NCBI GenBank assembly: GCA_963811305.1
Contig: CAWEQU010000003.1
Span: forward strand, 130,688 to 194,687
DNA length: 64,000 nt
Direction: 5' to 3'
From: an uncultured Chloroflexia bacterium
GTDB taxonomy: Bacteria; Chloroflexota; Chloroflexia; QHBQ01; JADMIH01
The notes under the pieces were generated by a model. It made no database searches. It saw only the letters and a list, made by a program, of their open reading frames with translations, and had not been told where the DNA came from. Of this stretch, positions 460-57,773 are shown piece by piece. Position 1 is the stretch's first letter; each line of letters begins with the position of its first letter. A program made the translations under genes and the position numbers.

Positions 460-791
460 ATGAAGAAGCTTTTTACGACACTCATGGCATCAGCAGCGGT
501 CTTGGCAGCAACAGCAGTGGGTGTAGCGCCCGCTAACAAGGGTGATAGTGTAAATTGGGGCGGCGTAAGTCGCGGTACCCAGGGGTCGGTCAACTGGGGC
601 GCACCTGCACCCGGTAATGACAGCGTCAACTGGGGCTTCAACGCCCTGGGCAAGTCGCAGGCCAGCGTGAACTGGGCGCACCTGCACCCGGTAATGACAG
701 CGTCAACTGGGGCTTTCACGCCACCAACACATCGGCCAGCGTGAACTGGGGCGCACCCGCACCTGGTTCGGATAGCGTCAACTGGGGCTAA
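460..791 (+). CDS. Small secreted repeat protein: signal peptide plus about seven SVNWG motifs in ~26-aa units; one apparent -1 frameshift at a G-run near 672
   Basis: MKKLFTTLMASAAVLAATAVGVAPA is a signal peptide. It is followed by DSVNWG...GSVNWGAPAPGNDSVNWGFNALGKSQASVNW. The DNA repeat unit then continues in the -1 frame (GAPAPGNDSVNWGFHATNTSASVNWGAPAPGSDSVNWG*). The second unit has aactggg where the first has aactgggg. An RBS-like aggaaacaggga lies upstream. Confidence 0.55.
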
Positions 792-850: not shown

Positions 851-1009
851 TGTCGTAAATTCGGATCTTACCGTACAGACCTTCGCTTCAACCTCGGCAG
901 AACTGCTGCTTTGTATGATATAAAGCAGGCATGAATAAAGAAATCTGCTGCTACTGCACGGCGCGTTGGGGGCGAGCGAACAATTCGCGCCCCTTCTCCC
1001 ACTCCTCCA

Positions 1010-1621
1010 GGAGATATAACCTCCACACGCTCGACTTCGAGGGGCATGGCCGTGCGCCTATGCAAGAGCGCCCGTTTCGCATCGAGCACTTCACGGAGAA
1101 CGTCCGCAGCTACCTGGCGCAGCACGCCATCGAGCGCACGCACATATTCGGCTACAGCATGGGCGGGTACGTCGCCTGCACCCTGGCTATCACGCACCCC
1201 GATCTTGTGGCGAGCATAGCGACGCTTGGCACGAAGTTCCACTGGGACCCTCAGACTGCCGAGCGTGAGGTAGGCTTCCTCGACACGGAGAAGATAGCGG
1301 CAAAGGTCCCCCACTTCGCCCGCGCCCTCACCGAGCGCCACACCACATCGGGTTGGGAGGCGGTTGTGAACAAGACCGCCGATCTACTTGTGTCCCTGGG
1401 GGAGGTTAGGGGTCTGCGGGCCGAGAAGCTGGGACAGGTTGCCTGTCGCGTAAGGGTTATGGTAGGTGACCGCAATTCGACGGTTGGCGTACCGGAAGCG
1501 TATGAGGTGTACCGCGCCCTCCCGCAAGGCGAGACTGGAGGTGCTGCCTGGGACGCGGCATGAGCTGGAGAGGGTTGAGGTGGGGAGGTTGGCGGGGGCG
1601 CTGGTGGGGTTCTTTGGGTAA
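1010..1621 (+). pseudogene. alpha/beta-hydrolase fold protein (GYSMGG nucleophile elbow), disrupted by at least two frameshifts; N-terminal HG-box remnant upstream in another frame
   Basis: GHGRAP...IFGYSMGGYVA...DRNSTV matches alpha/beta hydrolase. The C-terminus continues in another frame (ARLEVLPGTRHELERVEVGRLAGALVGFFG*, stop 1619-1621). The N-terminal LLLLHGALGASEQFAPLLPLLQE lies in a third frame at about 942-1015. Confidence 0.55.
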
Positions 1622-1942: not shown

Positions 1943-2476
1943 ATGTCAGATACTGTATGGGCCGCCATCATTGCTGTTGCTGGCGCGGTGGGCGGCACAT
2001 TACTCGGCGCCACTCTTTCACACATCTTTACCCTAATGAATAGGCGCGAAGAGGCTGAACGCCTCCGCGACCAATATTTACTCGACATTGAAGTAAAGAA
2101 AATTCAAGATGTATTACTCGCTCTCCACAATGCTACAAACATGATCAGCACGTTCAACCCGGAATCTCCAACCTACGAGAAAGACACATTAACAGAAATC
2201 AACAACTACGGCCAAAGCAACATTGACCTCAACAACCTTCTAGTCGTCACCTTACAATACTTCAAGAAGGAAGAACGCGATGCCATAAATAAAGCACGCA
2301 GGGCAATTCGAGAGCAGTTTGATCTTGCAAATGAACTCCACGAAGCAACACAAAATAACGACGAAGAAAAACGAGACACAATACTCAAAACCCTTGCAGA
2401 ACGCCAACCAAACTGGAGTGATGCTTTCTCGATAGCCATACTTATTGTAGGCACAAACTTCAACCAAGCTATCTAA
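1943..2476 (+). CDS. Hypothetical membrane-anchored protein (N-terminal TM helix plus helical or coiled-coil region), in a low-GC islet
   Basis: ORF with hydrophobic N-terminus WAAIIAVAGAVGGTLLGATL followed by a charged helical region. Local GC is visibly lower than the flanks. Confidence 0.5.
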   Translation: MSDTVWAAIIAVAGAVGGTLLGATLSHIFTLMNRREEAERLRDQYLLDIEVKKIQDVLLALHNATNMISTFNPESPTYEKDTLTEINNYGQSNIDLNNLLVVTLQYFKKEERDAINKARRAIREQFDLANELHEATQNNDEEKRDTILKTLAERQPNWSDAFSIAILIVGTNFNQAI

Positions 2477-2663: not shown

Positions 2664-3211
2664 ATGTCACCAGAATTCTGGCTCGCTATCATCGGCATCA
2701 GCGGCACCCTGCTCGCAACCATAATCCCCCAGTACTTCACCAGCAAGAAAGACGCCCGTGACCGCCAACAATGGTATGCTGAGTTCGCACTCAAACGCCG
2801 CTACGAAGCACTCAACGATCTCTACGCCAAAGCTACCACGTGCCTCCGCCAAGCTGAAGAGCAGAACCTCCAATTCCGCAAAGAACCTACAGAAGTGATG
2901 CTCGAGCTGTTAATGGGCACCGAGCCGTTCAAGATGCATTCGGCGTCGCCTCAACCTATCTTGACAGCAAAACTACCAGTATCACCGAAAACTTGATCGC
3001 CATTCTTAGCGAATACGTCTTGCTCAGCATGGAAAACGTACAGAAGGCCAGAATAAAAAAAGACTCGCCACCAACTCCCGACGAACTAACCAAACTCGAC
3101 GAAGTCTGGAAAAAGGCCAAATCCTCCCTGTTAGAACTACGCGACGATCTCAAACCTATTCTCAACCCTCCCATAGTGGACCGCTATCTCGAGGACATTT
3201 CACGCTCGTGA
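2664..3211 (+). CDS. Paralogue of the 1943-2476 protein (TM helix plus helical region); apparent frameshift near 2930 joins ORFs 2664-2996 and 2993-3211
   Basis: Same architecture: WLAIIGISGTLLATIIP N-terminal TM, then a helical region. The second ORF extends upstream in-frame as ...AVQDAFGVASTYLDSKTTSITENLIAILSEY. The combined length (~182 aa) matches the paralogue (177 aa). Confidence 0.4.
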
Positions 3212-3298: not shown

Positions 3299-3652
3299 TC
3301 AAAGCCCCTGGCCAGAATGGAGCACTATTCCTCTGGTCATCACCTCTGTAGCGAAGGTGAACTCACGCTCCAAAGCCGACTGTAATTGCCTAGGTTCAAG
3401 CACAAGAATATCCAACGCAAGGGGGTGGTCAACGGCAGCCGCAATATTTGCAGCAGCACGTAATGGCCTGCCTCCAGCCTCCATTATCACGAGCAGGTCT
3501 AAGTCGCTATCTTCTCTTGGCACTCCATACGCATAGGAGCCAAACAAGATCACTTTCTGAGGGTGAAAGCCATTTACGATCTGCTGAACAAGCTTCTGTA
3601 AGACTTCAGAGTGTAACTTAGTTGTAATATCAGCCGTGTTGGTTGAATTCAT
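3299..3652 (-). CDS. Nucleotidyltransferase-domain protein (MNT-type, Pol-beta superfamily); no adjacent HEPN partner detected
   Basis: Motif ILFGSYAYGVPREDSDLDLLVI is the GSxxxGxxxxxSDxDL minimal NTase signature. Confidence 0.7.
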   Translation of the reverse strand: MNSTNTADITTKLHSEVLQKLVQQIVNGFHPQKVILFGSYAYGVPREDSDLDLLVIMEAGGRPLRAAANIAAAVDHPLALDILVLEPRQLQSALEREFTFATEVMTRGIVLHSGQGL

Positions 3653-3789
3653 AGCCCTGACCTTAGCGAGAAACAGGTGAAGCGGAGGTCTAGTTGACCT
3701 CTATGACCTATTCATGCCCGTTGATGCGAGAGAATTATAGCACAATGGGCGGCCCAAACGAACCGCCCATTTGTCTTTCTCAGGTTACA

Positions 3790-3892
3790 CTAACCGATAC
3801 TACCTTCCATCTGCAACTCGATCAGCCTGTTCAACTCAATCGCGTACTCTAGCGGGATTTCCTTCGTGATTGGCTCGATGAAGCCGTTGACT
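3790..3892 (-). repeat. Duplicated copy of the sufB 3' end (last ~34 codons plus stop), ~95% identical to 4655-4757 with only synonymous differences
   Basis: Direct comparison: the copy translates to [34 protein letters not shown], identical to the SufB C-terminus. All 5 nucleotide differences are silent. There is an upstream in-frame stop and no start codon. Confidence 0.8.
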
Positions 3893-3915
3893 ATCAACCA
3901 TCTCTTTTGTATTTG

Positions 3916-4302
3916 CTACCACAGAACTTCTACTGGGTATTGTGCGAATACCGCATCCCCACTGAGCAGCACAATACCTTCCACTTGTGCCTGGGTGATG
4001 AGCAGACGGTCGAACGGGTCTCTATGGTGCATGGGAAGGTTATCCAAGGCGAGTACATGCGGTAATTCAACAGGAAGTACCCGAAGGCTGTTCGATTGCT
4101 GATGGCTTGCTATGAGATCAGCGAGGGGCATAGCTAATTGCAATTTGCCAAGCTGATGCTTGATTTGTATCTCCCAGACGCTGGCCACGCTAAGTAATAA
4201 GGTATTTGCCTGGTCTTGGCACAGGGTGAGCACCCTTGGTGATAGCCTGGCAGGCTGGCTATCCCACCAAATGAACGTATGAGTGTCCAGCAGCAGCTTC
4301 AT
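3916..4302 (-). CDS. vapC: Type II toxin VapC (PIN-domain ribonuclease)
   Basis: MKLLLDTHTFIWW...D...LLITQA pattern typical of PIN/VapC. ATGA overlap with the upstream antitoxin gene. Confidence 0.75.
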   Translation of the reverse strand: MKLLLDTHTFIWWDSQPARLSPRVLTLCQDQANTLLLSVASVWEIQIKHQLGKLQLAMPLADLIASHQQSNSLRVLPVELPHVLALDNLPMHHRDPFDRLLITQAQVEGIVLLSGDAVFAQYPVEVLW

Positions 4303-4553
4303 GCCTCCCCAAGCCAGAACTCGTCGGGTAGAGGGTCATCGAAGTCTTCGCTGGTCCAGATGGCGCCGGGATGTAGACCGGCGATGCGCTGTGGCCGCTC
4401 TTGCTCGCCATTGACCGGCACAATGCGGGCCAATGTTTTAGCACCGTCGGTAAGGATTACCTCAGTGCCTTCAGCCACCAGAGCTAACAATCTGGGCAAT
4501 TGTGTTTGGGGGTCTCGCACGTCAACAGTTGTTATAGTCATTTCTGTGTCCAC
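4299..4553 (-). CDS. vapB: Type II antitoxin (Phd/YefM-like) partner of VapC
   Basis: 84-aa ORF with 4-bp overlap to vapC. N-terminus MTITTVDVRDPQTQLPRLLALVAEGTEVILTDGAKTLARIVPV resembles Phd/YefM antitoxins. Acidic C-terminal tail. Confidence 0.6.
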   Translation of the reverse strand: MDTEMTITTVDVRDPQTQLPRLLALVAEGTEVILTDGAKTLARIVPVNGEQERPQRIAGLHPGAIWTSEDFDDPLPDEFWLGEA

Positions 4554-4645
4554 CTCCTATATGCCACCGCCTGCTACAATTATACAAGAAAGGGTGGCCC
4601 AACATGGACCACCCCTTCCAAAGATAAACCGCAGATTGCAGGCTA

Positions 4646-6061
4646 TTATCCGATAGACCCTTCCATCTGCAACTCGATCAGCCTGTTCAGCTCGATTGCG
4701 TATTCCAGCGGGATTTCCTTCGTGATTGGCTCGATGAAGCCGTTGACTACCATCGAAGTGGCTTCATTCTCGGAGATGCCGCGAGACATCAGGTAGAATA
4801 GCTGGTCCTCGCCGACCTTCGAGACGGTGGCCTCGTGCTGTATCGTGGTCGAGTTGTTCGCCACGTTGATGGTCGGGTAGGTGTCGGAGCGGGAGGTGTC
4901 GTCCAGCAGGAGCGCGTCACACTTGACGTTGGCCTTGCAGTGGTGCGCGTCCTCGGCTACCTCAAGGAGGCCACGATAGGTGGCGCGCCCCGTGCCCTTC
5001 GAGATACTCTTGGAGACGACGTTGGAGGTCGTGTAGGGGGCCTTGTGGACCATCTTCGCGCCCGCGTCCTGGTGCTGGCCGTCGCCCGCGAAGGCTACCG
5101 ATAGCACGTCGCCCCGCGCCCCAGGCTCCATCAGCCACACGGCGGGGTACTTCATGGTGAGGCGGCTGCCCAGGTTGCCGTCCACCCACTCCATCGTCGC
5201 GTCGCGGTAGGCAGCGGCACGCTTGGTCACGAGGTTGTAGACGTTGTGCGACCAGTTCTGGATGGTGGTGTAGCGCACTCTCGCGCCTTCCTTGACGATG
5301 ATCTCAACGACGGCAGAGTGGAGCGAGTTGGTTGTGTACGTAGGCGCGGTGCAGCCCTCTACGTAATGGACGTAAGAGCCAGGCTCGGCGATGATGAGCG
5401 TGCGTTCGAACTGGCCCATGTTCTCGGCGTTGATGCGGAAGTACGCCTGTAGAGGCACGTCCACTTTGACGCCTGCGGGGACGTATACGAATGACCCTCC
5501 TGACCACACGGCGGAGTTGAGCGAGGCGAACTTGTTGTCGCCCGCGGGGATGATGGTGGAGAAGTACTCCTTCACGATGTCGGGGTACTCGCGAACTGCC
5601 GTGTCCATGTCGGTGAAGATGACGCCCAGCTCCTCCAGGTCTTCGCGCAGGGAGTGGTAGATTACCTCGGATTCGTACTGAGCGCCCACGCCTGCCAGGT
5701 ACTTCTTCTCGGCCTCCGGTATGCCCAGGCGGTCGAAGGTGTTCTTTACCTCGGCGGGCACGTCGTCCCAGCTTGTGCTGTTTCTGTCCGAAGCCTTCAC
5801 GTAATAATAGATGTCGGAGAAGTCAATGTCGTTCAGCCAGCCACCCCACTGGGGCATCGGCTTGTTCTCAAAGAGGCGCAGGGCGCGCACCCGGAAGCGG
5901 GTCATCCACTCCGGCTCGCCCTTCATCGAGGAAATCTCGCGCACCATGGCTTCGTCCAGCCCCTTGCGGGACTTGAACGCGTAATTCTCCGGCATAGAGA
6001 AGCCATAGCGATAGCCTTCAGTAGCAAGCCCTATCTCAGGGGTCTTTGTCTCAGCAACCAT
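4646..6061 (-). CDS. sufB: Fe-S cluster assembly protein SufB
   Basis: Strong similarity across the full length to SufB (…[19 protein letters not shown]…[14 protein letters not shown]…[10 protein letters not shown]…). Start chosen at MVAETKTP with GGGAGGT RBS upstream. Confidence 0.85.
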
Positions 6062-6218
6062 TTTACTAACCTCCCGGTCCAATACCAGCACGGTTCGTGC
6101 CGCAACCATTCTTTATGTTGTACAATGCTCTGTGTTACTCAGGTATGATACACGTTAAGTATACTCTAAAAATGCCTATTTTTCAATGTTTAGACAGCTT
6201 TAACTGATTTTAGTAGTT

Positions 6219-6279
6219 GGACGATAGACGATAGACGATAGACGATAGACGATAACTTTGAACCTTGAACTTTGAACCC
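6219..6279. repeat. Word arrays: (GACGATA)x5 then (TTGAACC)x3
   Basis: Direct reading ggacgatagacgatagacgatagacgatagacgataactttgaaccttgaactttgaaccc, in the divergent promoter region between sufB and the GT1 gene. Confidence 0.85.
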
Positions 6280-7488: not shown

Positions 7489-8229
7489 ATGGAGTTACGG
7501 CAATACTGGAACGTCATAATGAGAAGGCGGTGGCTGGTGCTGGCTATCGCGGTGCTGGCTACGTTGTTCAGCGCCTTTTCGTTCTTCACTTCGGTCAGGC
7601 AATACAAGGCTGAGACTATCTTTACGGTCAGACAGCAGAATACCCCAACCGATCCGACGAAGATATTCACATTCAATGACTACTACAACTGGATCGCTTC
7701 AGAGTACCTCGTTGACGACTATACGCAGATCGTAGAGAGCGATGCGTTTGGGCAGAGCGTACTTGACACCATCAAGAAAGAGGTGCCCGCGGGCAACATA
7801 GTAGTCAGCGACACCACGAAGCTCATGGTCGAAGTTGATAGGATGAGGCCTAAGAACGTTAGCGACGTCGTAGGCGCGGAGCGCCGTCACAGGGAGTTGC
7901 GCGTCTTCGCTGAAACTTCAAGCAGGGACCTCACTAAAGCTATATTGGAAGGATCGAGCATCGTGCTCACCGAAGGTCTGATGAAAGTCTATAGAGGCGA
8001 GAATACGGACAGACCGATTATCGCGCAGATAAACACCGTGACTAATGACGACATGACCTCAAGCGTGTCTAAGGACATTACCAACGCGATAATCCGCGTA
8101 ATCATGGGCCTGGTCGCCGCCCTTGCTATAGCCTTCTTGCTTGAATACCTCGATAATAGTGTCCGGGACGAAAGGGACGCTCGTAAAGTGCTCGATCTTC
8201 CTGTGATTGGGGCGATACCGAGGACGTAG
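7489..8229 (+). CDS. Polysaccharide co-polymerase (Wzz/CpsC-like chain-length determinant), paralogue 1
   Basis: Strong RBS aaaggagaa. N-terminal TM, and C-terminal TM plus LEYLDNSVRDERDARKVLDLPVIGAIPR tail typical of CpsC/Wzz PCP-2b proteins. Confidence 0.65.
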   Translation: MELRQYWNVIMRRRWLVLAIAVLATLFSAFSFFTSVRQYKAETIFTVRQQNTPTDPTKIFTFNDYYNWIASEYLVDDYTQIVESDAFGQSVLDTIKKEVPAGNIVVSDTTKLMVEVDRMRPKNVSDVVGAERRHRELRVFAETSSRDLTKAILEGSSIVLTEGLMKVYRGENTDRPIIAQINTVTNDDMTSSVSKDITNAIIRVIMGLVAALAIAFLLEYLDNSVRDERDARKVLDLPVIGAIPRT

Positions 8230-8270
8230 TTCAAGGTTCAAAGTTCAAGGTTCAAGGCTCAAGGCTCGAG
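8230..8270. repeat. (TTCAAGG)n word array, inverted relative to 8722-8770
   Basis: gttcaaggttcaaagttcaaggttcaaggctcaaggctcgagg. Confidence 0.85.
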
Positions 8271-8280
8271 GAGTGAGCAC

Positions 8281-8754
8281 ATGACGAGTGCCCGGCAGTT
8301 TGAGGAACTTGAAGTCTGGAAGAAGGCACGATTAGTAACAAGAGAGATATATGCTGTAAGCTCGAAGGGCGCATTTTCACGGAACTTCGGCCTTTGTGAT
8401 CAAATTCAGCGGGCAGCTGTATCCGTAATGTCCAATATTGCAGAAGGATTTGAGCGAGAAGGCAACAAAGAGTTTCGACAGTTTCTTGCCCTAGCAAAAG
8501 GCTCCGCAGGTGAAATTCGCTCCCAGCTATATGTCGCACTGGACGCGGGCTTCCTTCAACAAAGTGAGTTTCAGCAGCTATATAACTCTGTAATCGAATT
8601 GAGCCGTCTCATAGCAGGTTTGATGCGTTACCTCAATGCCTCTGATTACAAAGGAAACAAATTTAAGGAAGCTTCAGGTCCAGAGTACCACACAGAAGGT
8701 CCCGACAGTCAGCTAGAGCGTCTTGAACCTCGAACCTCGAACTTTGAACCTTGA
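8281..8754 (+). CDS. Four-helix-bundle protein (TIGR02436; former 23S rRNA intervening-sequence protein family)
   Basis: EELEVWKKARLVTREIYAV...FGLCDQIQRAAVSVMSNIAEGFEREGNKEFRQFLALAKGSAGEIRSQL matches the family consensus. The C-terminal tail is encoded by the TTGAACC array. Confidence 0.7.
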   Translation: MTSARQFEELEVWKKARLVTREIYAVSSKGAFSRNFGLCDQIQRAAVSVMSNIAEGFEREGNKEFRQFLALAKGSAGEIRSQLYVALDAGFLQQSEFQQLYNSVIELSRLIAGLMRYLNASDYKGNKFKEASGPEYHTEGPDSQLERLEPRTSNFEP

Positions 8755-8770
8755 ACTTTGAACTTTGAAC
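8722..8770. repeat. (TTGAACC/TCGAACC)n word array
   Basis: cttgaacctcgaacctcgaactttgaaccttgaactttgaactttgaac. Confidence 0.85.
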
Positions 8771-9475
8771 AAACACATGCAGCTTGACCTGAGACAAATA
8801 TGGAGCGGCCTGCGTAAGCGGTGGTGGCTGGCGTTGTTGGTGATGCTGTCGGCTGCCGCCGTCGCGTACCTTTACACCAATGCACAGCCGCGTGTGTATC
8901 AGGCGCAGGTGACACTTGTGGCAAAGCCTGTACCTCCTGATAATGGTCTCATAGAGGCGATCAAGAAAACTATGAGCACCTACGCCCAGGAGCTGGGGAG
9001 CAAGAGCCTCTGGACGTCTGTGGTAGATGGTAATTTGATGCGCACGGTGGACCTGAGCGCATTGTCCGGCCAGATAAAGGTGCAGCCACGTCCCGACCAA
9101 AACTCACTCGTTATGACGGTGGATAATCAAGACAGTGTGTTGGCCGCACAGATAGCAGAGGCTATCTCGCAGGCGTTCGTGGAGCGCCAGACCGCAGAGA
9201 ACCAGGCTCTGGCGAGTGGTAATAAGGTCGTGTGGGTGATAGCCCAGGCTGCCGAAGTGCCCTCTCAGCCCTACCAGCCTCGCCCGCTCTTGTATGCGGG
9301 TGCGGCGGCTTTATTTGGCCTTATACTCGGCCTTCTATTGGCAATTGGGCTTGAGTTGCTGGACACGACGATTAAGACTCCTGCGGATATCAAGCAGTAT
9401 ACGGAGCTTAACACGCTGGGGATAATTCCACGTGCTAGCAAGGACGAAGGACGAAGGACGAAGGACGACGGATAG
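8765..9475 (+). CDS. Polysaccharide co-polymerase (Wzz/CpsC-like), paralogue 2
   Basis: N-terminal TM (WWLALLVMLSAAAVAYLY), and C-terminal TM plus LELLDTTIKTPADIKQYTELNTLGIIPR. The final residues (KDEGRRTKDDG*) are encoded by the (GGACGAA)n array. Confidence 0.6.
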   Translation: MNKHMQLDLRQIWSGLRKRWWLALLVMLSAAAVAYLYTNAQPRVYQAQVTLVAKPVPPDNGLIEAIKKTMSTYAQELGSKSLWTSVVDGNLMRTVDLSALSGQIKVQPRPDQNSLVMTVDNQDSVLAAQIAEAISQAFVERQTAENQALASGNKVVWVIAQAAEVPSQPYQPRPLLYAGAAALFGLILGLLLAIGLELLDTTIKTPADIKQYTELNTLGIIPRASKDEGRRTKDDG

Positions 9476-11600: not shown

Positions 11601-13750
11601 TCATATACTAAACAGCGATCTTACGGTCCTTGCTGCACGCTCAGGCTGTAGTTCTGCTTTCAGCAGCGTATGGGGCGTTTCGCCCGCGACGATAAGCACC
11701 GCAGTATCGTAGGTCGTGCCGAGGCCATCTATCGTGAAGCTTACGTCGCCTGAGGGGCCGACCTCTACGGGCTGTATCTCGAAGCCATTCCTATTGAGCT
11801 TTATGGCGGCAAGGTAAATTGCTGGGGGAGGGAGTTGTGGATGCGGGCGAAGCCCGTACTCTGCCAGCCGGTGTCGCTCTCGGCGTCATCGACGTAGCCA
11901 AGCTCAGGGATCGAGATGTCGTCTACGGCGAACCCCTGCGCGTTGTAGCCGTCGTCGGTGATGTACTCGAAGCGGAGCATCACCTCTTTGCCCGCGTATT
12001 CGCCCAGGTCTATGCTTTCCTTTAGCCATCCGCCAGGGTCGGCACCTGATTGGTCCTTGCTCTTGCCCGTATAGCCGTTGCCCTGGTTGGTGCCGTTGGG
12101 GTTATCGGTAGTGGTGTACTCACCTTTGAGGCTGGCCCAGGTTGCGCCGCCATCCGTGGAAGCTTCTACGTAGGCGAAGTCGAAGGTCTTCTCGACGTCG
12201 AACCACGCGTAGAAGTCCAGGGTGGCCGCTTGCAGGTTCCGAAGGTCGAACGCCCGCGTCATGTTCATATTGCTCACGTCGCCCCGGTTGCTCCACCATA
12301 TAGAAGAGCCACTGTGCGCGGGTGGGTCTATCACTCGTGTTTCGGTTTTGCCCGTAAAGTGAACATTCAATGAATTGCCGCTGTCCGGCGCGCTCAACTC
12401 TATGTAGTCAGTCCCGAACTGCGACACCGTACCCCTGTAGTCCTTCGGGTAGCTGCCCACCCTAACGTGTGGCGATACGCTCACGTCGCGGTCGGGGTAA
12501 TCGAGGCCCTCTCTCGCCGCACTTTCCTGACCATCCAGGAGGTTTGCTACCGTCCATCGCTCAAACACGTCCTTGAACTGCTCCTGCTTGCCGAGGGCCT
12601 TTAGCGCATTGTCAATCGCATCGATGCCCGTGCCTGTGGACGATACGATGTCTTTAAGTATTTCTTTGCCGCCGTAGTGCGCTCGTATGTAATCAAGGAA
12701 GAGGAAGGCCGCGCCGTAATGGGGACCCGACTCATTGGGGGTGGCCTCCCAGGCGTTGAGTCTGTATATCGGTGTCGATCATGAAATCGAAGTCTACACC
12801 TACGTCCTCGTAGCCGTTGAGCGCGCTCGCCAGCACCGCCATTCCTTCGTTGAGCCATACGTCGTGATTGGCGTGCTCGTTCCAGTGGATCATATGCTGG
12901 TGCTCGTGGGCGAGGGTGCTTTCGACGCCGAACCAGCCGCTGCCGGTGTTGATATAGATCATCTCGCGCTCATTGCTGAACGGGTTGATAGCGCGGGTGT
13001 ACTCGTCCGCGGACGAGTAATATCCGCCGACATTCGGTATGTCGGCGAAAAGCACGGTGAGGCGAGGGTCGTTGTCCACGCCTGGCGACCACTCGGAGCC
13101 AAATAGCGAACGATTGTTGGGGTATATTTGCTCATCGAAGGCGAGCGCCGCATCCTCTAGCGCGGACCTGTCAATAGGTTTGCCGTCCTGAGCGTACCAG
13201 TAGGCGTGGTCGGTGACCCTCTGTATTGTGGCAGTGACTGTGTAATACCTGTGCTCGCTGATGTTGTTGACGTAGAAGGTATCGGTATGACCCTCCTGGT
13301 AATTACTGGGTGGGTTGCCTGTAGTGTGAGGGATGGGGGTTGTGCTCTTCAGCTTGAGTCTCTGGACGATGGAGTAAAGGTCGCGCTTGGGGACCTCGAT
13401 GCTATCCAAAAGCCGTAGCGTGGCATCCGCATCAGCAGAGACGGTGGCGTTTGGCGAAGGCGTAATGTCACCTGCCCCTACGCTGGGCGATGCTACAGGT
13501 GTAACGCTTGCCGTGCCGAGGCTAATGGCGGTAGGGACTGGCGTGCCCAGGCGAGTTGGCTGGGAGGTTACCTGCGCGATGACGGTGGGCGTGGCCGAAG
13601 GTCGTGGCGCCAACCTAACAGGTATGTTGATGCGATAACCAGCGCCGATACGCCAATTACGAGCGCAATGGTAAGAGCTATCAGCTTCGGTGTGCGGTCA
13701 GGGGGCTGTGGGGTATAGTTGCCGGTAGGTTGATATGGGGGAAGTGACAT
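11601..13750 (-). CDS. M6-family (immune inhibitor A-like) metalloprotease; reading frame interrupted by at least three apparent frameshifts at G/C homopolymers
   Basis: HEHQHMIHW zinc motif. Contiguous homology continues across frames: N-terminal signal/TM in ORF 13568-13750, catalytic part 12732-13613, then 11801-12770, then the C-terminus at 11601-11800. The junctions lie at ggggg/ccccc runs. Confidence 0.6.
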
Positions 13751-13756
13751 AGTGTG

Positions 13757-14251
13757 TTATTGCTCTTTCAAAGGCTCAGAGAATAGGAGCCAGGCGAAGT
13801 TTATGCCGAGGAATATCATCGCTGAGAAGAGGATACCCTCTAGCTCCAGGGGCTGGAGGGCGATACCCAGGTCTTGCCCCACCTCCGGTCTCAACGCGAT
13901 CAGGGTTATGAGTGCATACAAAGGCACCGTTATCCATTGCACCACGCGGGGTATCTGTATACTTTCTTCCTCTACCTTTACGGCGTTGATGACTATCACG
14001 GTGGCAATCATACCAACCAGTCCAGCAATACCGAAGGTCACTTGCCACAGGTATCTGGCGTCACCGGCGATGAGGGCTACAAGGGACATCATTCCTGGCA
14101 CGAGGAAGTAGAGCGACACTGCGTGCGCCATCCGCCGGTATCCCGGTTTTCGCATCCACTCTGCATGTCTGAACTGCACCACGGCCCACCAGAATCCCAG
14201 GAGGGTAAAACATAACTGTGCAGTGGTGGCGTAAAAGGTCTCTACGGACAT
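13757..14251 (-). CDS. Hypothetical polytopic membrane protein (~4 TM)
   Basis: Hydrophobic ORF. Start chosen at MSVETFY. The upstream part of the six-frame ORF is translation of the (GACGATA/GGACGAT) array (SIVHRPSS...). Confidence 0.45.
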   Translation of the reverse strand: MSVETFYATTAQLCFTLLGFWWAVVQFRHAEWMRKPGYRRMAHAVSLYFLVPGMMSLVALIAGDARYLWQVTFGIAGLVGMIATVIVINAVKVEEESIQIPRVVQWITVPLYALITLIALRPEVGQDLGIALQPLELEGILFSAMIFLGINFAWLLFSEPLKEQ

Positions 14252-14263
14252 ACCTTTGCTCTC

Positions 14264-14351
14264 GGACGATAGACGATAGACGATAGACGATAGACGATGG
14301 ACGATGGACGATGGACGATGGACGATGGACGATGGACGATGGACGATAGAC
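14264..14351. repeat. (GACGATA)x4 plus (GGACGAT)x7 word array
   Basis: Direct reading. Confidence 0.9.
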
Positions 14352-14511
14352 CATGAAGTCAATAAAAGGATAGCATATTGTGGGGTGGGTGGCGAGTTCT
14401 AGCCGATAAATGAAAGAGGTGTTGGGCGCGCCCAACACCTCTTTCATATGTAGATACAGAGTGTAGGTACAGGAATTGGACTTTCGCTTACGGGTTTGCA
14501 CACGCCTGCTG

Positions 14512-17320: not shown

Positions 17321-17747
17321 GTTGGGCGCAGGGAAATGATGGTTGGATGTGCAAAAACCATTGACACCACCCTATGGCGGGTGTAACATCCGCACACCTC
17401 AAGGCCGGGCACGTAACTCGGCGGCGTACGGAAATATGAAGCGAAGCAAGGGTTATTGGAAAGTGGAAAGGGTTGCCCCTATGCGTACCGACTGGATATT
17501 GTTTACATTGCTGGGTCTGCTATGGCTAGGGGCCGGGGGCATACACCTGAGATTGCCACGCCGTCAAAAGGACCAATCGCCGGAGATAGAGGAGTGAAAC
17601 GTGACGACGGACGATAGACGATAGACGATAGACGATAGACGATAATGTCTGATGCGTGATACGTAAGTCTATTGCCTAGCGCATAAACTCTTATAAAATC
17701 TTAGCGTTCTTGGTTATCTTTGCGTCTTGGCGTTTAATAATCACGCA

Positions 17748-19041: not shown

Positions 19042-19059
19042 TGAGCTCCTGTGTAGTTC

Positions 19060-19137
19060 GGACGAAAGATGAAGGACGATAGACGATAGACGATAGACGA
19101 TAGACGATAGACGACGGACGACGGACGACGGACGATT
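19060..19137. repeat. (GACGATA)n plus (GACGGAC)n word array upstream of murA
   Basis: Direct reading. Confidence 0.9.
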
Positions 19138-19178
19138 GATAATGAGTACTGCTTCTGCCTTCTGCCTTCTGTCTTCTA

Positions 19179-39256: not shown

Positions 39257-39293
39257 CGAAATGTCTCCAGTAATGTGGTCCTATTATAGCATG

Positions 39294-39367
39294 GTGGACG
39301 ATGGACGATGGACGATAGACGATGGACGATGGACGATGGACGGTGAAGTGAAACGTGAAACGTGAGG
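39294..39367. repeat. (GGACGAT)n plus (GAAACGT)n word array upstream of the NTase-like gene
   Basis: Direct reading. Confidence 0.9.
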
Positions 39368-39510
39368 GTAGAAGGTTATTGCCTTCTGTCGTCCTGAGTT
39401 CAGCGTCCCATTGCTTGCCAAACTCTGGTGCGTGCGCTATTATGCTCGTCATATCTGAGAAAGTACTTCACCCGTTGGGCAGGGGATGTTAGTGAGTATA
39501 AGGAGGTTAT

Positions 39511-57539: not shown

Positions 57540-57617
57540 TGAGAATACTCCTCTGAGGGAAATTGCATCTAACCGAAGGATGATAGCACCTGCGGTCTGG
57601 GAGTGTCAACTTGCTAT

Positions 57618-57773
57618 GGACGATAGACGATAGACGATAGACGATAGACGATAGACGATAGACGATAGACGATAGACGATAGAGGATGGAATGCATACTT
57701 CCCTAAAATAATCTCTGCGTCTCTGCGGTGAATTTACTTTCTGTCGTCCATCGTCCGTCGTCTATGATATAAT
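57618..57773. repeat. (GACGATA)x10 array plus conserved ~80-bp composite element (copy 2)
   Basis: gcatacttccctaaaataatctctgcgtctctgcggtgaatttactttctgtcgtccatcgtccgtcgtc matches 7400-7476. Confidence 0.85.

Follow-up and report, generated by a model that had tools for sequence, protein, structure and literature searches.

A vapBC toxin-antitoxin cassette flanked by a duplicated sufB 3′ end in Chloroflexia, and its possible movement by homologous recombination

Type II toxin-antitoxin (TA) pairs are among the most horizontally mobile genes of prokaryotes; most of them have no mobility gene, and their movement is largely unexplained. We analysed a 64-kb stretch of a Chloroflexia contig (CAWEQU010000003.1; the whole stretch is termed the window) in which a vapBC TA pair lies directly behind the Fe-S assembly gene sufB and is followed by a second copy of the sufB 3′ end. 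Some integrative elements insert into the 3′ end of a gene and restore it; cis-mobilizable elements (CIMEs) and tycheposon-type cargo elements, the latter flanked by partial tRNA repeats, are non-autonomous derivatives of such elements. The sufB locus is like these elements in that direct repeats of a gene 3′ end flank cargo and the gene remains intact; helper-dependent versions without a recombinase exist among them. It is unlike them in that no integrase-bearing relative was found at the site, the repeats are 105-132 nucleotides (nt) long, diverged, and ragged at their left ends, the crossover points appear variable, and the target is a protein-coding gene in Chloroflexia.

Displacement of C-terminal ends in Rhs genes has been explained by a two-step homologous-recombination model with circular intermediates (2009, PMC2935791). 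In both Rhs loci and the sufB locus, a detached 3′ fragment, which opens with conserved gene sequence of variable length, lies behind an intact gene; the incoming unit would combine part of the conserved gene with genes downstream of it; and a recombinase is absent. In both cases, moreover, the old tip appears to be shunted rather than deleted, and exchange is limited to close relatives. The differences are equally clear. Rhs is a polymorphic toxin, whereas the target here is a housekeeping gene. The incoming and displaced tips encode the same peptide, so that the diversification typical of Rhs was not found. As payload, the unit here has a type II TA pair together with a terminator and a promoter-like box of its own, and each locus has one displaced fragment instead of a long array.

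Two further systems share features with the locus. Staphylococcal prophages of the Sa1int type lie beside sufB (PMC6036120, PMC8297860; NC_055019.1, PV200784.1). Their insertion point, as here, is immediately downstream of a terminal sufB; however, they are 40-50 kb long, have an adjacent integrase and a 12-bp attachment (att) repeat about 50 nt past the stop codon, and leave the sufB coding sequence unduplicated. Minimal mobile elements of Neisseria are recombination-driven hot spots between conserved genes (PMC3787668). Like the sufB site, they have varied content at one position, conserved flanks, and no mobility genes, and exchange proceeds via flanking homology. Those elements need a conserved gene on either side and cause no duplication, whereas the right-hand arm here is a duplicated piece of the left-hand gene, which would travel with the cassette. 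Literature searches turned up neither a TA cassette between copies of a duplicated gene end nor a duplication of the sufB end.

The duplicated sufB end and its TA cassettes

The locus reads on the minus strand; coordinates are window positions unless another locus is named. The sufB product matched Pfam SUFBD_core (297 bits) and SufBD_N. Neither sufD nor sufC was found beside sufB in the window, and no SufD-like match was present there. A repeat search revealed a direct repeat of 106 nt (3791-3896 and 4647-4752; 91% identity, spacing 856) that was far beyond chance and the sole one of its kind in the window. In 2.1 Mb of other loci, comparable repeats consisted of the same sufB structure in three relatives and nothing else. 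When the 64 kb were searched by tblastn, two SufB C-termini were detected: the end of the functional gene (copy B) and a copy 856 nt downstream of it (copy A). These searches confirmed the direct duplication of the sufB terminus claimed by the original prediction, although that prediction was 9 nt out of register, with an offset of 865 rather than 856 and copy B at 4655-4757 rather than 4646-4752.

Copies A and B differed at 10 nt over 33 codons plus stop, and all differences were synonymous. Identity was ~90% with 10 differences, instead of the ~95% with five differences first proposed. The changes are silent, as had been stated, and translation verified that both copies encode the same peptide of 33 residues. 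They are not confined to third positions: TTG/CTG is a first-position leucine change, AGT/TCT changes two positions of a serine codon, and the stop codons are TAG and TAA. Past the stop codons, weak similarity between the copies ran on into the hairpin and the -10 box.

The DNA between the copies contained only vapB, vapC, a hairpin, and a promoter-like box (Table 1). No recombinase gene was detected there in the open reading frame (ORF) list or in a Pfam survey. The earlier statement that vapBC alone, without an integrase, separates the repeats was thus correct for the genes, to which the hairpin and the box have to be added. The hairpin folded at -30.4 kcal/mol (z = -4.7) and was kept in L081 and L211, two of the related loci described below; it is probably the sufB terminator brought by the cassette. 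The arrangement of hairpin plus TTCTTGTATAATT was also present in L081, L211, and L085. We take TTGTATAAT as the putative vapBC promoter; a simple promoter scan showed no -35 match near it. A simple promoter/terminator scan overlooked both this hairpin and the one behind copy A, which were revealed by RNA folding.

The vapB stop codon overlaps the vapC start codon by 4 nt. VapB had no Pfam match, and its match to NCBIfam TA_VapB (24 bits) was below the 60-bit cutoff; the VapB orthologue in L208 had a sub-threshold PhdYeFM match. Orthologues of 80 amino acids (aa) were found in L081 and L211, and the gene pair was conserved in L081, L211, and L208. In VapC, the acidic residues D6, E44, D98, and D116 are present and were invariant in 117 homologues. 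VapC had 6928 homologues, named VapC or PIN toxin by their sources. Given the PIN domain, the acidic residues, and the coupled upstream gene, vapB-vapC is predicted to be a type II TA pair. The junction between vapC and copy A appears to be a decayed remnant of sufB codons about -43 to -34 (counted back from the stop) that was carried along with the cassette; in alignment, this stretch was longer or less decayed in L081, L211, and L208. Exact-sequence look-ups of the SufB and VapC of the window and of the 100%-identical P0121 gave no match.

Each sufB copy has its own strong hairpin on its 3′ side. The one behind copy A folded at -25.8 kcal/mol (z = -4.7), was orthologous in L081 with loop changes, and is probably the original sufB terminator. 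The motif TGCTATAAT, which follows it, was also found 3′ of the sufB terminator in the relatives L086 and L087, whose sites are empty.

Table 1. Features of the sufB region, listed in the direction of transcription of sufB
Feature	Position in window	Strand	Description
sufB	4646-6061	-	471 aa; ATG at 6061 behind GGGAGG; mechanical ORF extends to 6109
Repeat copy B	4646-4752	-	Last 33-35 codons and TAA stop of functional sufB
Cassette hairpin	4588-4618	-	GAAGGGGTGGTCC...GGGCCACCCTTTC; 27 nt past sufB stop, then T-rich tract
-10-like box	4579-4587	-	TTGTATAAT; directly past cassette hairpin; read from sequence
vapB	4299-4541	-	Antitoxin gene; 80 aa; ATG at 4541 behind GGAGGTGG (GGAGG)
vapC	3916-4302	-	Toxin gene; 128 aa; PIN domain (PF01850), 34 bits against cutoff of 23.6
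Junction	3897-3915	-	CAAATACAAAAGAGATGGTTGATA; between vapC stop TAG and copy A; in frame with vapC
Repeat copy A	3790-3896	-	33 intact codons and TAG stop; no sufB body upstream
Native hairpin	3745-3770	-	ATGGGCGG...CCGCCCAT; 19 nt past copy A
Extended -10-like box	3734-3742	-	TGCTATAAT; past native hairpin, upstream of MNT gene
Solo MNT-type nucleotidyltransferase gene	3299-3652	-	Pfam NTP_transf_2, Polbeta; weak MntA match

The duplication was present in five assemblies of the same clade: the window, L081, L211, L208, and L151. The SufB proteins of relatives, from Chloroflexia metagenome bins, are 471 aa long and 88-96% identical. In each of the four other assemblies, a TA cassette occupied exactly this place together with a duplicate of the sufB 3′ end of 105-132 nt. 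L081 (SufB 96%) was collinear with the window over 5.2 kb at 86.5% nt identity, with the order sufB, vapB, vapC, a called 34-aa ORF that corresponds to the fragment, and MNT. L211, a 1.4-kb contig, had the same cassette (VapB 92%, VapC 84%) and a junction identical to that of the window; its fragment was cut after 12 codons and followed by a Schlafen/AlbA_2 gene. In L208 (SufB 89%), vapB and vapC (71%) were followed by a 43-codon fragment and then by a second, different PIN pair. L151 had an unrelated PIN pair of 69 aa and 135 aa between 123-nt repeats that were 97.5% identical. The fragments started at codon -43 in L208, -40 in L151, about -39 in L081, and about -35 in the window. The structure is real, recurrent, and polymorphic, and its point of entry has been used by at least two TA pairs that are unrelated to each other. 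An assembly artefact, which could have undone the prediction, was ruled out by the recurrence of the structure in five independent assemblies from JGI, ENA, NCBI, and Logan. The proposal of a decayed element was not supported: all five instances, including the unrelated pair of L151, hold TA content only, indicating that the minimal cassette is the unit and not a remnant.

Relatives with empty sites, the proposed check on an insertion, were also found. L086 and L087, without the duplication, have the sigma/anti-sigma/ABC genes of L151 directly after sufB. L209 and L210, whose SufB protein is that of L208, match L208 at 98.7% identity as far as the stop codon and differ from it beyond. L082, L085, and the P0005 contig have no duplication and other neighbours. 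In one case, sample ERZ25039588, an occupied allele (L208) and one with the alternative island (L209) occurred together. The upstream block of GT4 glycosyltransferase, Wzz, ParA-like kinase, and CpsB was conserved in all relatives, and the DNA after sufB differed per lineage. The downstream content comprised TA pairs, MNT, Schlafen/AlbA_2, a PIN-AAA-methylase island, PRiA4_ORF3, GNAT, and sigma/anti-sigma genes. Such varied content between conserved flanks, with no mobility genes, was seen across the window/L081, L085, L082, P0005, L086/L087, L151, L208, and L209/L210, as is characteristic of a hot spot.

Wider scans extended this survey. A metagenome pattern scan on the last 15 codons returned mostly distant sufB-sufD operons and one new instance, L151; its partial matches were contig edges, except L128. 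When a genome collection was scanned with SufB, the best relative among the matches listed was 73% identical. Second C-terminal matches at 19 loci of that scan were the paralogue SufD and not duplications. None of 80 more distant genome loci had a second sufB end.

As a separate observation, L209 (7552-12110) and L210 (5966-10900) have, instead of TA cassettes, a 4.9-kb island directly past the sufB stop. It encodes a PIN-domain protein, an AAA ATPase (AAA_22, weak TniB, BrxC/D-like), an uncharacterized 340-aa protein, and a protein with a weak DNA-methylase match. The island looks like a defence island, and the site looks like a hot spot for defence and TA genes.

Origin of the two copies and movement of the cassette

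In the four genomes with complete fragments, the changes between copies A and B were synonymous in 25 cases and non-synonymous in 1; one boundary codon came in addition. Such a synonymous excess has P ~1e-14 under neutrality (23% synonymous sites). The copies differ only synonymously because, in our view, each was recently part of a functional sufB.

Several comparisons bear on which copy came in. Copy A has 3 differences from the functional sufB end of L081. Its identity to L085, whose site is empty, is 91.5%, vs. 87.1% for copy B, and the terminator and MNT gene on its 3′ side are orthologous in L081. The 3′ part of copy B has foreign synonymous states (GAA, GCA, ATC, and GGG TCT ATC GGA TAA). 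GGG TCT is common to copy B of L211, which has the same cassette subtype; the L087/L151 lineage has TCC. We infer that copy A is the displaced native end and that the 3′ part of copy B arrived with the cassette. The native-like copy A and the foreign states of copy B thus support the idea of a replacement 3′ end that was put forward from the sequence of the window.

Mosaic patterns were seen in the relatives. Six sites informative between L208 and the near-isogenic L209 read B, B, B, B, A, A. In L211, the 5′ part of copy B has 10 differences from copy B of the window and is L082-like, and its 3′ end matches that of the window; the 5′ part of copy A, non-coding junction included, is identical to copy A of the window. 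These mosaics are consistent with a copy B composed of host 5′ and element 3′ sequence, and a copy A composed of element 5′ and host 3′ sequence. The inferred switch intervals, which are based on few informative sites and on proxy "host" sequences, are codons -33 to -20 in the window, -36 to -29 in L208, -15 to -5 in L211, and near the stop in L081. In L208, the vapC-adjacent part of copy A (codons about -43 to -34) has diverged synonymously but remains intact; in L081 and the window it is scrambled. This edge, the only part to decay, presumably does so because it moves along with the cassette, can never be exchanged, and is not exposed to selection within a functional sufB. Identity between L208 and L209 was 95.8% within sufB but 98.7% for the complete 7.4-kb stretch that begins upstream of sufB and includes it; this pattern suggests a recombination tract ending at the island.

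The cassette and its surroundings also differ in divergence. Between the window and L081, Nei-Gojobori synonymous divergence (dS) was 0.46 for sufB, 0.59 for MNT, 0.91 for vapB, and 1.82 for vapC (proportion of synonymous differences, pS, 0.68). Synonymous divergence of vapBC was thus 2-4 times that of the flanking sufB and MNT. The ratio of non-synonymous to synonymous divergence (dN/dS) of vapB and vapC was about 0.1. The excess indicates that the TA pairs split long before the flanks, i.e. they were acquired separately or swapped in one lineage. The original prediction had viewed MNT and the adjacent low-G+C islet as remaining cargo. They lie outside the repeats, and the dS of MNT tracks that of sufB, unlike the values of vapB and vapC; MNT and the islet therefore appear to behave as resident DNA and not as cargo of this cassette.

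The reading that we favour, with about even confidence, is that a minimal mobile TA cassette recombined into the final ~100 nt of sufB, displaced its C-terminal end, and moves by homologous recombination. The cassette would consist of its own copy of the last 33-43 sufB codons, a terminator hairpin, a promoter-like box, vapB, and vapC. A crossover within the shared sufB segment would join the host gene body to the 3′ end brought by the cassette (copy B), leaving SufB intact. The old 3′ end of the host would be shunted downstream as a silent fragment (copy A), with the native terminator and neighbour still attached. The borrowed sufB segment could thereby serve as a portable homology arm to any related sufB. 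Entry might occur by a single crossover with a circle excised by recombination between A and B, or by a double crossover with linear donor DNA whose arms are the sufB body and copy A. Recombination between A and B could also delete the cassette, which would free the toxin; the TA pair probably penalises such loss, and this putative addiction may be the reason that TA pairs persist between such repeats. Homologous recombination is suggested by the lack of a recombinase in the cassette together with a conserved sufB segment as homology arm; no recombinase gene was found in or beside any of the five instances. The differing inferred switch points and the variable left ends are likewise what would be expected of homologous recombination rather than recombination at a fixed core.

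Several points weigh against displacement by homologous recombination. No excised circle, donor molecule, or transfer vehicle was seen, and the reading gives no account of how the first cassette gained its sufB segment. The switch points depend on few informative sites and proxy hosts, and a crossover at a fixed position could have been obscured by allelic recombination or gene conversion at a later time. For RecA to recombine them efficiently, the repeats are short (105-132 nt) and diverged (about 90% identity). The left repeat ends cluster between codons -43 and -33, and such a narrow range could also reflect a site preference. Only the five instances have DNA context, and four of them belong to one cassette lineage.

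The main alternative, which we regard as unlikely, is site-specific integration in trans, in which the cassette is a non-autonomous element (CIME or satellite) with its att site in the sufB 3′ end and depends on a recombinase, of the tyrosine or serine type, that another part of the genome or a helper element encodes. An att site is classically recognised by direct repeats that supply a replacement 3′ end, and here the repeats at both ends derive from the target. In copy A of the window and of L081, decayed sequence gives way to intact sequence close to codon -33. The switch interval of L208 (-36 to -29) spans this codon, where it also overlaps that of the window, and one core would be compatible with these positions. 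The switch points of L211 and L081, however, lie outside -36 to -29, and att cores are usually shorter than 105-132 nt and less ragged than these repeats with their variable left ends. Integrases associated with sufB 3′ insertions were to be sought in relatives; none was found at the site in about 12 related loci or in 80 distant ones, a result that covers the sufB loci only. The 80 more distant loci had no second sufB end, and two scans of viral contigs gave 0 contigs with this sufB end. With no integrase at the related loci and with inferred crossover points that differ, the integrase-type att mechanism assumed at the outset was not shown.

The staphylococcal prophages, which do carry an integrase, demonstrate that the region downstream of sufB can be used for integration; their 12-bp att lies about 50 nt past sufB. 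Our tblastn matches in phages were prophage records with the whole sufB of the host and the 12-bp att beyond the stop codon. The entire host sufB lies beside the integrase in NC_055019.1 (L218; 55-2569) and PV200784.1 (L219; 2798-5312), and the latter also includes sufD, sufS, and sufU. In NC_055019.1, the 12-bp repeat is annotated 48 nt past sufB. The presence of host suf genes in phage records indicates that prophage boundaries were drawn into host DNA. The plasmid matches of tblastn were large replicons with a complete sufB gene, or the edge of a contig of chromosomal origin.

An origin in situ is improbable. The duplication, which would comprise the sufB 3′ end and terminator, would then be an old local event around a resident vapBC; its copies would have been kept alike by gene conversion or by allelic recombination with strains whose site is empty, and it would have been lost repeatedly in relatives. 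Copy A does track amino-acid variants of the host SufB (e.g. V/V in L208), and in L151 the 97.5% identical copies have lineage-specific states in common. Within genomes, pS between A and B was 0.07-0.40, not above host divergence, and the weak homology of the copies runs into the hairpin and the -10 box. An in-situ origin, however, needs at least 2 independent duplications with near-identical limits around two unrelated TA pairs. It leaves unexplained the divergence of vapBC at 2-4 times that of both flanks, the identical element-side junction of L211 and the window next to differing host-side sufB sequences, and the foreign serine codon type in copy B of the window.

We consider it very improbable that copy A is a functional micro-gene encoding a SufB C-terminal peptide of 33-35 aa, translated by re-initiation after vapC, maintained by purifying selection, and acting, e.g., through interaction with SufC or with the TA pair. 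Between copy A of the window and that of L081 there were 7 synonymous and 0 non-synonymous differences in codons -32 to -1, and the 9 codons upstream were scrambled; displacement accounts for this synonymous pattern without translation. Every complete copy has a start codon at -35 or -34, and gene callers predict the fragment as an ORF; however, the start position is not conserved (TTG in the window, a new ATG in L081, the natural ATG in L208 and L151), and no convincing Shine-Dalgarno sequence precedes it. The fragment lies in frame with vapC, 2-10 codons past its stop, in 4 of 4 related cassettes. The L211 fragment, on the other hand, has only 12 codons, and the L151 fragment has an L-to-P change. 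Among database fragments, 20 of 120 had a residue never seen in 275 full-length SufB proteins, vs. 11 of 275 in a leave-one-out control, and about six of these private substitutions were at otherwise invariant positions.

Other candidates were rejected: a target-site duplication by a transposon or insertion sequence (repeats of 105-132 nt that are diverged, no terminal inverted repeats reported around the cassette, and no transposase ORF), an integron cassette (no intI/attC-type array was noticed nearby in the ORF and Pfam surveys, which included no dedicated search), a trait of the VapBC family (a close VapC homologue in another organism, L212, had no flanking repeats), and intein homing (an intein was found in L151 only, 520 nt upstream).

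Other features of the region

The intein of L151 occupies 11756-12619 on the minus strand within sufB (...GTGNFISQGFIVHN|), at about SufB residue 298, 520 nt upstream of the TA insertion. Reading frames were checked at the vapC-fragment boundary of the window (3897-3921), L081 (12195-12230), L208 (8172-8190), and L211 (843-870). In these 4 of 4 related cassettes, the vapC stop codon (TAG; TAG TAG in L208) is in frame with the sufB fragment and separated from it by 2-10 sense codons. A 6-nt indel between the window and L081 keeps this frame; the unrelated cassette of L151 is out of frame.

Genes of the islet decay differently in the two collinear loci. A 182-aa gene of L081 (13660-14171) corresponds to ORFs of 110 aa and 72 aa in the window (2664-3211, plus strand), and a 177-aa ORF of the window (1943-2476) is split over two frames in L081. 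An alpha/beta-hydrolase gene (931-1620, plus strand) that converges on the sufB region is read in three frames when compared with the 232-aa orthologue of L085; it is either a pseudogene or affected by sequence errors. A 26-nt repeat at the edge of the islet (1309-1334 and 1859-1884) was attributed to chance, with no second hydrolase fragment there.

Many intergenic regions contain tandem arrays of 7-nt units, GGACGAT/AGACGAT and TTGAACC/TTGAACT. Such arrays lie at 150-205, 6211-6278, 8228-8271, 8722-8777, 9434-9475, 14234-14385, 17565-17660, 19044-19167, 39266-39368, 57581-57718, and other positions, and a 42-nt register occurs in >36 copies over the window. Similar heptamer runs follow sufB in relatives, e.g. 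CGCCAAG in L082. Around 8281-8754, 43-nt inverted repeats composed of TTGAAC heptamers (8229-8271 and 8728-8770) flank the gene of a 23S rRNA intervening-sequence protein (PF05635, 122 bits); gene and repeats together look like a small inserted unit. A signal-peptide ORF (461-790, plus strand) encodes repeated ...SVNWG... units in 49-nt and 21-nt direct-repeat families, and its frame appears broken at ~660-700.

SufB mini-ORFs and significance of the locus

A search of public protein sets with the fragment peptide returned short proteins only: SufB C-termini of several lineages, encoded by ORFs of 34-72 aa in 146 clusters. Some are on contigs of 0.1-1.4 Mb, and about 17 have a non-SufB leader. 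One, P0261, shares a 98-kb contig with SufB P0011. In L128 (153-668), from a different lineage, the last 65 SufB residues are fused to unrelated sequence. Many mini-ORFs of 35, 47, and 59 aa begin at natural Met or Val codons. The mini-ORFs may reflect widespread displacement of sufB ends, or many of them may be contig-edge or frameshift artefacts; we treat them as a lead only. Short "SufB" ORFs annotated downstream of sufB should be viewed with caution, as displaced gene ends that mark insertions.

For the movement of TA pairs, the locus is a concrete, recurrent, and testable case: several independent cassettes entered at one chromosomal point, and both occupied and unoccupied alleles are available. 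We raise, tentatively and with more doubt than confidence, the possibility that TA cassettes carrying the 3′ end of a conserved gene form a class of recombinase-free mobile elements, in which the gene end is the homology arm and the TA pair guards against deletion. If the homology-arm reading is true, any small cassette could turn mobile by capturing the end of a conserved gene. TA addiction would gain a specific role, the blocking of repeat-mediated loss, and the displacement mechanism described for Rhs would extend from toxin diversification to housekeeping genes.

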